Shown here in pieces: positions 39-5,128 of a stretch of 5,271 nt of DNA. The number at the start of each line of letters is the position of its first letter. Within the stretch, counting starts at the first letter, position 1. The DNA lies in the IMG/VR virus record IMGVR_UViG_2693429733_000017; one strand, 5' to 3'. Under the pieces are notes generated by a model. The model was not told the origin of the DNA, did no database searches, and saw only the letters and a list, made by a program, of their open reading frames with translations. A program made the position numbers and the translations under genes. Source of the DNA: a virus (lineage: Duplodnaviria > Heunggongvirae > Uroviricota > Caudoviricetes).

Positions 39-386
39 CTACTGTGTTTCTGTTAGCCATTGTCCGGCGGCTTTTTGCTGGGTAATGCTTGCCTGCACCT
101 CTCTGGCTGATCTTTGCCAATATTTAGAAGTTAAGAGGAGGTCGTCCGCTAAATCTTCCAGACGACTACCGATCTGTGCGTCGGTATAGCCCTTTTTCAC
201 CATTCCGTTGACAGCTTTTGAAATTAAACCAGCAGAGTTATTGGCAAAGTCTTTCAAATCCTTTTTAGTTAAGAATCCTTCATTCATTAAAGTGTTAATA
301 CCAGAATCACCGCCCTTCCATATGCCTTTCCCTGTTTTCTTATCAACTACATATTCAGCCTCGTCATAGCTTTTGGTAGCGCGTTC
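39..386 (-). pseudogene. 3' fragment of an unidentified protein-coding gene, N-terminal part removed by the IS911 insertion
   Basis: Minus-strand frame is open from the IS911 left end (386) to a stop at 39-41; the listed 82-aa ORF (39..287) is its internal-Met part. No family recognised from the ~116 aa remaining. Confidence 0.4.
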
Positions 387-422
387 TGAAGTGGCACACT
401 GAATTTGGCCACCTGAACAGAG
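387..422 (+). repeat. IS911 left terminal inverted repeat (IRL)
   Basis: TGAAGTGGCACACTGAATTTGGCCACC at 387 onward pairs imperfectly with the reverse complement of the right end (TGAAGTAGTCAACAAAAACTGGCCACC). Confidence 0.7.
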
Positions 423-458
423 GTGATATGCTCACCTCAGAACAACACAGGTGCTCCA

Positions 459-1635
<1,177 letters not shown>

Positions 1636-1706
1636 CCCTTGCTGGACTTGAACCAGCGACCTGGCGATTATGAGTCGCTCGCTCTGACCAACTGAGCTAA
1701 AGGGCC
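1636..1706 (-). tRNA. tRNA with anticodon CAT, tRNA-Ile2 (lysidine, AUA-reading) type, 3' end truncated by IS911
   Basis: Reverse complement reads GGCCCTTTAGCTCAGTTGGTCAGAGCGAGCGACTCATAATCGCCAGGTCGCTGGTTCAAGTCCAGCAAGGG. It folds as a cloverleaf (D stem GCTC/GAGC, anticodon loop CTCATAA, T stem GCTGG/CCAGC, T loop TTCAAGT). The 5' acceptor strand GGCCCTT needs AAGGGCC, but only AAGGG is present before the IS terminus. Resembles E. coli ileX/ileY from memory. Confidence 0.75.
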
Positions 1707-1895: not shown

Positions 1896-2450
1896 TCAAA
1901 AAGCAATAACTTTTTTCTCTATACCAAAAGCCATAACCATTGGTTTGTACAAAATAAATTCTGCCACCTTTAGCCAATGCTCAATGCGTCTTTCACAGGT
2001 TCTTAAACTCCATTTCGGGTGTGCATCATTCAGCAGTTCAGCCATTTTGCGTTTGGTCATCCCCCGCCCCTCATACCGTTGCCGAAGGACGCTAATCAAT
2101 CCTGGATGCTCTGCCAGCACCTCACTTATGACCCGATCAATACATAACGCCTCTGCATCAGTACAATGCGCCAGCCAGCTCTTTTGCTTACCGTTAATCA
2201 TATCCCGCAAAAAAGCCTCAAGTTCAGACTTGTTCAGACCTGCTTTTTTCATCCTCCGGAGCGCCTCGTTAATTGCCGTTTTTGTCAGCTTTTTAGAGGT
2301 CAACATCAGGTTAAACATATTCCCCGTCTTACCGCCACCAATATACGACCAGCGCCCCCACATACGTAGTTTTCCCTGAATCCAGACACTTTCCAGCGTG
2401 GTGAGACGAAGGTGTTCTCCGCTTTTTCCTGTATTCGTTGGGTAAATCAT
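1896..2450 (-). CDS. Putative phage late-gene antitermination protein Q (Q-like)
   Basis: ATG at 2450 with strong SD (AGGAGG, 7-nt spacer); 184 aa MIYPTNTGKSGEHLRL... Shares motifs (WG.W, LxTSKxK, GMT) with my memory of DLP12/933W-type Q. Sits immediately after the YbcO-like gene and before terminator and tRNA, the Q position in lambdoid phages. The listed longer ORF to 2570 overlaps the upstream gene and lacks an RBS. Confidence 0.55.
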   Translation of the reverse strand: MIYPTNTGKSGEHLRLTTLESVWIQGKLRMWGRWSYIGGGKTGNMFNLMLTSKKLTKTAINEALRRMKKAGLNKSELEAFLRDMINGKQKSWLAHCTDAEALCIDRVISEVLAEHPGLISVLRQRYEGRGMTKRKMAELLNDAHPKWSLRTCERRIEHWLKVAEFILYKPMVMAFGIEKKVIAF

Positions 2451-2737
2451 AAATATCCCTCCTTTCTCCAGATTTCTTGTGTGCGAAAAACACCTTCTGC
2501 ATGCATCAGGCGTAATTCTTCTTTGGTGTAATCGCTGGTTTTTACCCGCCCGTCGATTAAATCGTGGCACGAGCTACAGGCAATCGCTGCCTGCATATCG
2601 TGTGGCTTTATCGCTGTTCCGCACGTTCCCGCCAGTCGGTAATGCGCCAGCACAGACGTTTCCGGATCGTGATTGCAGTAGCCAGGAATTCTGACGGTGC
2701 ACATCTGCCCCCGCGCCGCTTTACGTAAATCCACCAT
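2447..2737 (-). CDS. YbcO-like phage protein (DUF1364-type, putative Zn-binding nuclease)
   Basis: 96 aa MVDLRKAARGQMCTVRIPGYCNHDPETSVLAHYRLAGTCGTAIKPHDMQAAIACSSCHDLIDGR...; four-Cys pattern and overall similarity to DLP12 YbcO as I recall it. SD GGAG 8 nt upstream. Start overlaps the upstream stop (TAATG), stop overlaps the Q start (ATGA). Confidence 0.7.
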   Translation of the reverse strand: MVDLRKAARGQMCTVRIPGYCNHDPETSVLAHYRLAGTCGTAIKPHDMQAAIACSSCHDLIDGRVKTSDYTKEELRLMHAEGVFRTQEIWRKEGYL

Positions 2738-3336
2738 TACGCAAACTCCAGCAGCTGCGCGGCCACATTTTCGACTTGTTCCGGAGAGGAAAATTTACGG
2801 AACAGAATCCAGTTCCACAGCACATTCAGAACAGATTTATAAACCTGCTGAAACTCGGTTTCGTCCATATTCGCAAACGCGATAGATTTCGCCCGACACC
2901 CACGGCTACCGTCCGGATAAAAATGCTCGGTGTAAAATCCGGCCTGAATGGCTACCCACTCGCGGAAAGCCTCAAACGACTTTAGCAATGCCGTATCACT
3001 GGTTCTGCGTGTCGCAACTGTATTCAGATATTGCTCTGCGGCTTCGCTCAGAGCTGGCGTATGTTCCCGGCCTACTGATTCACACAGGTAATCAACGAAA
3101 CCGGACACCAGTTTTCGTTCGCGAGGCGTGATCGCCCCACCGACCGGAGTCCAGTAATCGAAACCCAGTTGCAGGAGTTTGAAAAAACGCTTGTGGAATG
3201 CGTAGTTACACACACGCTTAAAGTCTGCGTGTATCCACTCACCTATTTTGATTTGATGCAGAAAATCGCAACTCTCCGGCGTCGCCGGGAGAAGTAATCC
3301 GGAAGAGGTTTGTTTGACCAGTTGTATATGTGCCAT
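2737..3336 (-). CDS. YbcN-like phage protein (DUF1367-type, assigned from memory)
   Basis: ATG at 3336 with SD GGAG 7 nt upstream; 199 aa MAHIQLVKQTSSGLLLPATPESCDFLHQIKIGEWIHADFKRV... The listed ORF start at 3378 is a TTG overlapping the upstream stop with no SD. Confidence 0.55.
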   Translation of the reverse strand: MAHIQLVKQTSSGLLLPATPESCDFLHQIKIGEWIHADFKRVCNYAFHKRFFKLLQLGFDYWTPVGGAITPRERKLVSGFVDYLCESVGREHTPALSEAAEQYLNTVATRRTSDTALLKSFEAFREWVAIQAGFYTEHFYPDGSRGCRAKSIAFANMDETEFQQVYKSVLNVLWNWILFRKFSSPEQVENVAAQLLEFA

Positions 3337-3374
3337 CGGCTTTCTCCGGTGGCACGGTGTTACACAGCAGGAGT

Positions 3375-3662
3375 TCAATCCTGCTCAAGATTGTAGATGA
3401 GTTTATTCTTCAGCAAAAGCAGAAAACCAGCCTTAAAACCAATCTCTTTCAAAACCCGTAATGATGTGACAAATTCGTCCTCACGCAAAATAAAACCGTC
3501 CGTCAGAAGTCCATTACAAAAATAAAATAACACAGCACCGCTCTTCCTTTGTTGAGATTGCAAACATCTAATGCGGCAATGGCTGACAATCGCTCCATTC
3601 TCAACGCGCACAGCATAGAGGCCATTTTCACTAAAAATTTCACGCAATTCTTCGATTTTCAT
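3375..3662 (-). CDS. Hypothetical 95-aa protein, first gene of the nin-like operon, function unknown
   Basis: ATG at 3662 preceded by GGAAGGA; 95 aa MKIEELREIFSENGLYAVRVENGAIVSHCRIRCLQSQQRKSGAVLFYFCNGLLTDGFILREDEF... No family recognised. Occupies the position of rem in the Qin prophage (hokD-rem-ydfU-quuQ), as I recall that map. Confidence 0.5.
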   Translation of the reverse strand: MKIEELREIFSENGLYAVRVENGAIVSHCRIRCLQSQQRKSGAVLFYFCNGLLTDGFILREDEFVTSLRVLKEIGFKAGFLLLLKNKLIYNLEQD

Positions 3663-3911: not shown

Positions 3912-4067
3912 TTACTTCCTGGATTCGTAGTCTACGAAGACAGCGACCTCCGTCTGGCCGGTTCGGATTCGTACCTCACAGAGGTCTTTCCTCGTTACCA
4001 GTGCCGTCACTATGACGGTTAAACAGATGACGATCAGGGCGATTAACATCGCCTTTTGCTGCTTCAT
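3912..4067 (-). CDS. hok: Hok-family type I toxin (small membrane peptide), closest to HokD/RelF and HokC/Gef
   Basis: 51 aa MKQQKAMLIALIVICLTVIVTALVTRKDLCEVRIRTGQTEVAVFVDYESRK, near-identical over most of its length to E. coli HokD/HokC as I recall them. ATG at 4067. Confidence 0.85.
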   Translation of the reverse strand: MKQQKAMLIALIVICLTVIVTALVTRKDLCEVRIRTGQTEVAVFVDYESRK

Positions 4068-4124
4068 AGCCTGCTTCTCCTTGCCTTTCGGCATGTAAGA
4101 GGCTAACCTACATGTGCAAAGCAT
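3912..4124 (-). CDS. mok: Mok-like in-frame upstream extension of hok (modulation-of-killing reading frame)
   Basis: ATG at 4124 with GAGG 8 nt upstream; 19-aa extension MLCTCRLASYMPKGKEKQA in frame with hok, the same arrangement as mokC/hokC in E. coli K-12. Confidence 0.55.
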   Translation of the reverse strand: MLCTCRLASYMPKGKEKQAMKQQKAMLIALIVICLTVIVTALVTRKDLCEVRIRTGQTEVAVFVDYESRK

Positions 4125-4188
4125 GAAATTGGCCTCAGATTAATGTTAAGCGTCTTGCCGGACGCGTAATGTTAACTGGGGCTTTTCT
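4117..4188 (+). ncRNA. sok: Predicted Sok-like antisense RNA (boundaries approximate)
   Basis: Plus-strand candidate promoter TTGCCT (4081-4086), 17-nt spacer, TAACCT (4104-4109). The transcript would be antisense to the mok start and SD (4122-4136), then an imperfect hairpin at 4141-4174 and a U-rich tract at 4182-4190. Architecture only; no direct homology confirmed. Confidence 0.3.
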
Positions 4189-4225
4189 CTATCTGCCTTT
4201 TGGTGTTCATGCCTGAAGCAGATAG

Positions 4226-4240
4226 CCTCAAGCACCCGCA
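4226..4240 (-). promoter_or_regulatory. hok mRNA 5' tac-like element, pairs with the 3' fbi-like element
   Basis: RNA 5' region GCGGGUGCUUGAGGCU...; complementary to the 3' element at 3840-3855. Confidence 0.45.
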
Positions 4241-4273: not shown

Positions 4274-4294
4274 TCAGAAAGGTGCCCCATAAAA

Positions 4295-4981
4295 TCACTC
4301 CTTCTCTTCTTTACCGTAGTGGAGTTGACCAATTTTGATAAGAGGGCGTCCCTGAGATTTGCGGTGTAGATTGGTATCGCGCAGAGAATACACACAGCCA
4401 CAATATTCCTGCTGATAGAATTTTTCGCGCTTGCTGATTTCAATCATACGGGACGAGCCGCCCTGCTTGCGCCAGTTATAATCCCAGTACACCATGCCCG
4501 GATAATGCGCGACGGCTCGCCGCCCACAGTCGTTAACCTGCTGCATATTTTTCCAGCGTGAAATGCCCAGTGAACTGCTGATCACACTGAAACCATTTTC
4601 AGCGGCGTACAGCGCCGTCCGCTCAAAACGCATGTCAAAACACATGGTGCAACGGATCCCTCGTTCGGGCTCCCATTCCATTCCTTTGGCTCGTTCAAAC
4701 CAGTTGTCTGTGTCGTAATCAGCATCAATAAACGGCACGCCGTGTTGTTCAGCAAAGCGAATATTCTCATCCTTACGAATTAAATACTCTTTCTGAGGAT
4801 GAATGTTCGGGTTGTAGAAAAAGATGGTGTAGTCGATTCCCGAGGCCTGAAGCGCCTCCATCACCTCACCGGAACATGGAGCACAGCAAGAGTGCAGTAG
4901 TAGTTTGTTTGCCCCGTTTGGGAGCTCCAATTTGGGCCGTTTGAAATCAGCAACTGTCATAAATATGTTTATTGGGGTCAT
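4295..4981 (-). CDS. queH: QueH-like protein (DUF208 family, putative epoxyqueuosine reductase or related Fe-S enzyme)
   Basis: 228 aa with [48 protein letters not shown] and a C-terminal [10 protein letters not shown] Cys motif, all typical of QueH/DUF208 as I recall the family. Start uncertain: ATG at 4981 or 4960, neither with a clear SD. Confidence 0.8.
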
Positions 4982-5128
4982 AAAAATATCAAAGAGTGTA
5001 GCATTAGAACGGGGCTATCGGAAACAGATGTGTGACTGCTCCCCGCCCTTTCGGGCGGTCTCCTGATGATTTGAGGGTGCAGAAATCCCTCCGGTTAAGG
5101 ATTAAATTTTTAACAGTGCTAAATTTAA

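Follow-up and report, generated by a model that had tools for sequence, protein, structure and literature searches.

The stretch of prophage DNA analysed here, 5,271 nucleotides that we refer to as the window, carries an intact gene whose product belongs to QueH by every sequence and fold criterion. With moderate confidence, we read it as a working and probably self-expressed enzyme that would give lysogens a B12-independent route from epoxyqueuosine (oQ) to queuosine (Q); we infer its activity, expression and benefit. The identity of the enzyme as QueH is much more certain than this B12-sparing reading. The family, its reaction and its structure are already known, and RefSeq names the protein QueH. 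What seems to be undescribed is the setting: a queH cassette that recurs, is under selection and probably drives its own expression, carried by lambdoid phages and plasmids of Enterobacteriaceae that have QueG. In the literature on QueH, DUF208 or epoxyqueuosine in phages or prophages we found no description of a phage-borne QueH.

The queH reading frame and its product

The gene is an uninterrupted minus-strand ORF of 228 aa at positions 4295-4981. This longest frame reaches seven codons beyond a second ATG at 4960, which is probably the true start and gives a protein of 221 aa. PGAP picks the equivalent start in the E. coli FDAARGOS_944 gene, which is 99.9% identical, the N-termini of the chromosomal homologues of Providencia, Photorhabdus and Pantoea fall at the equivalent position, and the distance from this start to a promoter-like motif upstream is conserved.

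The initial annotation, made from the sequence without database searches, had placed the protein in the QueH/DUF208 family on account of its Cys-rich motifs and had proposed a profile search as the check. The search gave a significant, full-length match to Pfam PF02677 QueH (E=1.9e-65; 220.6 bits, the gathering score being 23.5; positions 1-174 of the 175 in the profile). The product also matched the crystallised QueH of T. maritima by sequence (PDB 7lc5, E=5e-22) with about 30% identity. An NCBIfam HMM search of the product returned no match, although PGAP names the protein QueH.

All seven family cysteines were kept. In the 228-aa numbering these are C32 and C33, followed by Ala-Pro and C36, then C111-x2-C114 and C194-G-C196. 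Six of them (C32, C33, C111, C114, C194 and C196) align with C9, C10, C87, C90, C169 and C171 of T. maritima QueH. The seventh, Cys36, occupies the position of Asp13 in T. maritima QueH, the residue mutated in PDB 9dco. The motifs CCxP[C/D], CxxC and CxC presumably hold the ligands of the [4Fe-4S] cluster and of the iron next to it, as Li et al. 2021 reportedly assigned the metals. We aligned 56 full-length representatives, taken from the best 150 matches of an exhaustive search and 37-77% identical to the query. In this sample, which is skewed to relatives of the query, the seven columns held Cys in 48-56 of the 56 sequences and five positions were near-invariant. The C194 column was Cys in 48/56 and the C196 column in 52/56 representatives; the Cys36 column was Cys in 54/56, the sole Asp being that of T. 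maritima itself.

The AlphaFold2 model of the product had a mean pLDDT of 75 and a pTM of 0.77. When it was compared with the PDB by Foldseek, the top five matches were all T. maritima QueH (E 6e-12 to 2e-10, TM 0.83-0.85 on the target, rmsd 2.5-3.4 Å), the best of them being 7lc7 and 7lc5 (TM 0.84-0.85 on the target, rmsd 2.5-2.8 Å). The next matches were other adenine-nucleotide alpha-hydrolase-like tRNA enzymes, with E of 7e-5 or worse. The phage protein therefore has the profile, the fold and the six cysteines in common with T. maritima QueH (PDB 7lc5, 7lc7, 9deu; IPR003828), and differs from it by about 20 extra N-terminal and about 25 extra C-terminal residues, which are common to the proteobacterial homologues. 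Unlike T. maritima QueH, it is borne by a temperate phage whose host already has QueG.

In PHROGs the product corresponds to phrog_3217, listed as 'unknown function' (E=1.7e-138). The phrog_3217 profile, 188 positions long, begins at residue 34 of the product and thus omits the CCAPC motif. This suggests that truncated gene calls in phage records lie behind the short profile.

Genomic setting, distribution and mobility

The prophage setting proposed for the gene was confirmed: downstream of queH come DUF1367, YbcO and a Q-like antiterminator of the DUF1133 family (Table 1), and the same block is found inside an annotated prophage at ybhA/modC of E. coli FDAARGOS_944, where the order of the nin-type genes is the same. 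The neighbouring hok toxin locus noted earlier was likewise borne out by the Pfam and Rfam matches given in Table 1. The Hok toxin is encoded by the C-terminal 51 codons of the mok/hok frame and is called hokD in relatives. Between hok and DUF1367 lies a 95-aa ORF (3375-3662, minus strand) that belongs to phrog_340, of unknown function, and accompanies hok-DUF1367 in many loci; it had no Pfam or PADLOC match. PADLOC was run on QueH, this ORF, DUF1367, YbcO and a further ORF of 82 aa, and with zero matches among the five proteins tested a role in a defence system found no support.

Table 1. Features located in the window, with the evidence for each
Feature	Position	Strand	Basis and remarks
IS911 (IS3 family)	381..1635	+	99.5-99.8% identity to annotated IS911 copies; HTH_Tnp_1, rve
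tRNA, CAU anticodon (Met/Ile2 type)	1633..1706	-	ARAGORN, Rfam; alignment to the intact FDAARGOS_944 copy
nin-type genes: orf95, DUF1367 (YbcN-like), YbcO, DUF1133 Q-like antiterminator	1896..3662	-	Pfam; PHROGs; early-right operon
mok/hok frame	3912..4124	-	Pfam HOK_GEF E=9.8e-23; hokD annotated at the equivalent place in the FDAARGOS_944 prophage
hok/sok regulatory RNA (type I toxin-antitoxin)	4062..4237	-	Rfam RF01794 sok, 117 bits (gathering 59), E=4.6e-27
queH CDS, 221 aa	4295..4960	-	Pfam, PDB, Foldseek, PGAP start, homologue N-termini
Putative extended -10 element TGCTACACT	4995..5003	-	34 nt upstream of the 4960 start; comparative conservation
GC-rich hairpin CCGCCC-GAAA-GGGCGG	5043..5058	-	Perfect, upstream of queH, no T-run

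The tRNA gene of the prophage had been taken as a sign that the phage manipulates host tRNA together with queH, and this link did not hold. PGAP calls the equivalent gene of the FDAARGOS_944 prophage tRNA-Ile, and in that intact prophage it heads a cluster that continues with Arg(TCT), Thr(TGT) and Gly(TCC). Since the anticodon is CAU, the cluster lacks the GUN-anticodon tRNAs that carry queuosine, and IS911 has clipped the 3' end of the gene, the tRNA offers no support for queuosine manipulation. Its 3' acceptor strand AAGGGCCA reads AAGGGTGA in the window, where the IS911 terminal repeat takes the place of the last bases. The insertion severs the prophage right behind the Q-like gene and the tRNA. 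From 1636 on, beyond IS911, the window is homologous to the intact prophage, and the Arg, Thr and Gly tRNAs as well as the lysis and structural genes of the intact relative are missing from the window. Because of the IS911 insertion and these absences, the prophage of the window is probably defective. On the other roles suggested at first, protection from anticodon nucleases or a different reaction, the analysis yielded no evidence. On the far side of IS911, the 82-aa ORF (39-287, minus strand) gave a weak match to an internal stretch of a tail tape-measure protein (phrog_16051, E=6e-6, positions 357-436 of the 660 in the profile) and is possibly the remnant of an IS-mediated deletion.

The assumption that E. 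coli-type hosts use QueG agreed with the genomes: K-12 queG DNA was present in 5426/5426 complete E. coli genomes. The queH sequence was found in 995 of the 5426 (~18%), nearly always as a single chromosomal copy annotated 'epoxyqueuosine reductase QueH', and each queH-positive strain therefore has both enzymes. That queH is horizontally acquired cargo, as had been supposed, is upheld by its presence in 995/5426 genomes, by a constant prophage slot wherever we examined it and by nearest relatives on chromosomes and plasmids of other Enterobacteriaceae.

IMG/VR contained 188 viral contigs with near-identical queH, and 80 of these were covered by our comparison of the phage slot. The slot was constant in 80/80, with queH between the replication module and the nin/Q region. 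The replication module upstream consisted of O-like, DnaC-like YdaV and DUF977/Ren-like genes, and downstream there was either DUF1367-YbcO-Q or an HNH protein and Q. The genes around queH were all co-oriented, with hok directly downstream in most contigs. The flanking modules were mosaic and the slot remained unchanged; queH stands in phage genomes as a discrete insert between functional modules with sharp homology boundaries. The isolated and viable Escherichia phage HannyBb also carries queH, with 95.6% nucleotide identity and annotated as hypothetical. Its gene order places queH in the same slot; the sequence after the stop differs and hok lies ~550 nt farther downstream. The recurrence at the same position in other lambdoid prophages, which had been put forward as a check, was thus seen in 80 viral contigs, one isolated phage and one annotated prophage. 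A prophage that appeared to have hok and to lack queH (match ending at 4292) was discarded, as it is truncated by IS911 right after hokD.

Outside Escherichia, the closest relatives were those of Scandinavium (92% aa identity), Kluyvera (91%) and Enterobacter (89-90%); with Klebsiella included, the overall range is 89-93%. The copies of Scandinavium, Kluyvera and Enterobacter have no phage neighbours: the gene is near rluE and icd in Enterobacter and among metabolic genes in Scandinavium. More distant homologues of Erwinia, Providencia, Photorhabdus and Pantoea (80-86%) stand alone in chromosomal surroundings that are not of phage type; those of Erwinia and Providencia have core housekeeping genes as neighbours. 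The same queH clade is present on 296 plasmids, 99 of Klebsiella and 62 of Escherichia, as a lone gene in accessory regions, and the plasmid homologues of Klebsiella, Salmonella and E. coli showed 90-99% identity. When a Salmonella IncFII plasmid was compared with the phages, the block in common was limited to ~795 bp, reaching from -96 to +30 around the ORF. Given the occurrence on chromosomes, plasmids and phages and the extent of this shared block, queH travels as a small self-contained unit among these replicons of QueG-containing bacteria.

Expression signals around the gene

The TGCTACACT motif upstream of queH occurs once in the window, where 0.01 occurrences are expected. In copies from phages, plasmids and chromosomes, TGCTACA(C/A)T or a near variant of it precedes the Met8 start by 34-35 nt, and the position of the motif was identical within 3 nt in 12/14 of the closest loci. 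The upstream sequence of these motif-bearing copies is otherwise unalignable. A TACACT-like hexamer is retained in the upstream regions of Erwinia and Pantoea. Among the phage copies, several unrelated types of upstream junction occur, and these converge ~75 nt before the start codon. From the comparative conservation of the motif at a fixed distance, we infer that TGCTACA(C/A)T is a putative native queH promoter that was carried along with the gene.

A generic promoter and terminator scan of the window yielded no promoter or terminator assignable to queH, and no Shine-Dalgarno sequence was evident before either ATG. In close homologues the leader runs for ~34-35 nt from the -10-like motif to the ATG, also without a Shine-Dalgarno or a conserved sequence. 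An Rfam search of the queH leader, at the gathering score and also with E up to 5, returned only a 13-bit chance match. The leader fold was unremarkable (z = -2.0), and we found no riboswitch or other known RNA element there.

The GC-rich hairpin listed in Table 1 is confined to the upstream-junction variant of the window, and the scan calls no terminator there; the hairpin may be what is left of a nin-region terminator. A different hairpin-forming tail follows the queH stop in HannyBb (L002, 11547-11576) and in Klebsiella and Salmonella plasmids, for example CACGCC-ctcggt-GGCGTG. In the variant of the window, the hok/sok locus takes the place of this tail, which may be the native terminator of the queH cassette.

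Since queH is co-oriented inside the early-right operon, it could also be expressed mainly after induction, which is equally compatible with its position.

Proposed queuosine completion in lysogens and competing readings

The reading that we favour would run as follows. A unit of ~0.8 kb, consisting of the ORF with its native promoter and a short tail, would have been captured from an Enterobacteriaceae chromosome or plasmid. In lambda-like phages it now has the replication genes on one side and the hok/nin/Q region on the other. Transcription of queH in the lysogen would probably start at an extended -10 promoter of the gene's own and would not depend on the phage early-right promoter, pR. 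The enzyme would remove the epoxide oxygen of oQ at position 34 of tRNA-Asp, -Asn, -His and -Tyr, giving Q without cobalamin. E. coli QueG needs B12, which E. coli cannot make de novo, so that under B12 scarcity the prophage copy would rescue the last step and let the lysogen finish queuosine synthesis. For this reason queH would count as a lysogenic-conversion ('moron') gene. Zallot and colleagues are said to have complemented an E. coli queG mutant with queH from other bacteria in 2017. We know of no phenotype and of no translational or decoding difference between oQ-tRNA and Q-tRNA.

Among lambdoid phages, lambda bor and lom are moron, or lysogenic-conversion, genes. The phage queH resembles such genes in being a single host-type gene with an apparent promoter of its own, placed between phage modules, variably present and of no obvious use in replication. 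It differs from them in that it encodes a tRNA-modification enzyme and not a surface or virulence factor, and its transcription in the lysogen is putative. The stand-alone, single-gene organisation of the phage queH is that of its chromosomal homologues.

The biochemical background fits this reading, and its most concrete point, the differing need for cobalamin, was missed by the initial annotation. QueG is cobalamin-dependent, QueH is iron-dependent, and the two are redundant for one step (PMC13443448). Frey et al. 1988 reported that E. coli depends on B12 to reduce oQ to Q, and an E. coli queG mutant is cited as accumulating oQ. E. coli QueG (b4166) carries out the same reaction on the same substrate as QueH (PMC5372724) and coexists with it in the same cells. 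The two enzymes are not homologous: QueG uses B12 and a [4Fe-4S] cluster, whereas QueH uses an iron-sulfur cluster and iron, and QueG is core chromosomal while queH is mobile. In Staphylococcus aureus, QueG and QueH likewise form a redundant pair with differing cofactors, which has been interpreted as an adaptation to cofactor availability (PMC13443448). In bacteria with both enzymes, such as S. aureus, both genes are chromosomal, whereas here the second enzyme is on a prophage in ~18% of E. coli, or on a plasmid in Klebsiella. Acinetobacter baylyi reportedly also has both QueG and QueH, being one of the bacteria of this kind that Zallot et al. are said to have named in 2017.

If the enzyme is active, the E. 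coli carriers and, through plasmids, many Klebsiella would bypass their dependence on scavenged B12. Pairs of strains with and without the prophage queH would then be a natural test of what the last queuosine step is worth. Activity would also give phrog_3217 a function and correct the published picture of viruses as having no enzymes of the queuosine-specific branch, since the 2019 survey by Hutinet et al. reported that homologues of QueA, QueG and QueH were absent from the viruses analysed (PMC6884629). If queH only duplicates QueG without measurable effect, it would be ordinary accessory cargo. The system is a clean and testable case of mobile, cofactor-independent redundancy, and its mechanism is in itself unsurprising.

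The main rival reading, unlikely if well conceivable, is that QueH serves the phage in lytic growth. In this case queH would be a delayed-early gene transcribed from pR after antitermination and would raise the Q/oQ ratio of host tRNA, either for better translation of phage genes or to pre-empt a Q-dependent host response. At all loci that we examined, queH lies between the replication genes and Q in the orientation of both, which speaks for such a role, as does its presence in a viable phage, HannyBb. In Shewanella, according to a preprint, queG expression rises on phage infection and oQ is shifted towards Q, with effects on biofilm formation and resistance of the host (10.64898/2026.03.05.709803). 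However, the phage gene has kept the promoter-like motif of the chromosomal and plasmid copies, and plasmids carry the same gene without having a lytic cycle. Many carriers look like defective prophages (the window because of its IS911), yet their queH is intact and under strong purifying selection. Moreover, no documented translational difference between oQ and Q is known to us. The lytic role and the completion of queuosine in lysogens are mutually compatible.

A bolder proposal, to which we give rather little credence, is that queH is spread by temperate phages and plasmids of Enterobacteriaceae because the conversion of oQ to Q is a switch with physiological meaning. A prophage that frees this step from B12 supply would then reprogram the translation of NAU/NAC-rich genes, either in the lysogen or upon induction, with effects on the outcomes of phage-host encounters. 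If true, QueH would be the first enzyme of the queuosine-specific branch to be borne by a virus and to act on host tRNA.

We consider it improbable that queH is a neutral passenger that hitch-hikes with the hok/sok addiction locus and has no function for phage or lysogen. The position of hok directly downstream in most loci would suit a passenger, and no phenotype is known. Nevertheless, all of the phage-borne copies examined (84/84) were intact and full-length. Among the phage alleles dN/dS was 0-0.03 at dS of 0.12-0.23, and it was ~0.016 between phage queH and the nearest chromosomal genes. This combination of intact copies and low dN/dS with substantial synonymous divergence argues strongly that queH is under strong purifying selection and is no decaying passenger. 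The association with hok is also incomplete: about 15 of the 80 viral loci had no match to our Hok panel beside queH, some of them ending near the gene, HannyBb departs from the common arrangement right after the stop, and plasmids and chromosomes keep queH without hok.

A substrate other than oQ in tRNA, such as a modified base of phage DNA or a small molecule used in modification or counter-defence, is very improbable: 7-deazaguanine chemistry on DNA is on record for phages (PMC6884629), but at the level of annotation the FDAARGOS_944 prophage and HannyBb have no DpdA/TGT-like transglycosylase, no preQ0 genes (FolE, QueD, QueE, QueC) and no other queuosine or 7-deazaguanine genes, PADLOC gave no match for QueH, and with 80-92% identity to the stand-alone chromosomal QueH of many Proteobacteria and every conserved residue present there is no sign of neofunctionalisation.

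Two further observations concern the clade and its surroundings. The QueH clade is unusually conserved, with copies of Sphingomonas, Paracoccus, Acetobacter, Stenotrophomonas and Neisseriaceae at 75-80% protein identity to the E. coli phage copy, and synonymous sites are saturated within Enterobacterales (the dS estimate fails or is >1). The pattern points to very strong constraint or to frequent transfer from class to class, or to a combination of the two.

IS911 was also met beside queH in unrelated settings. On the Salmonella IncFII plasmid it lies immediately downstream of the gene (L176, 7699-8832) and is 97.8% identical to the IS911 of the window. In two viral contigs (L013 and L022) its insertion point is the place of the GC-rich hairpin, ~75 nt before queH. 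These places are possibly an insertion hotspot, or IS911 is possibly a vehicle that moves the gene.
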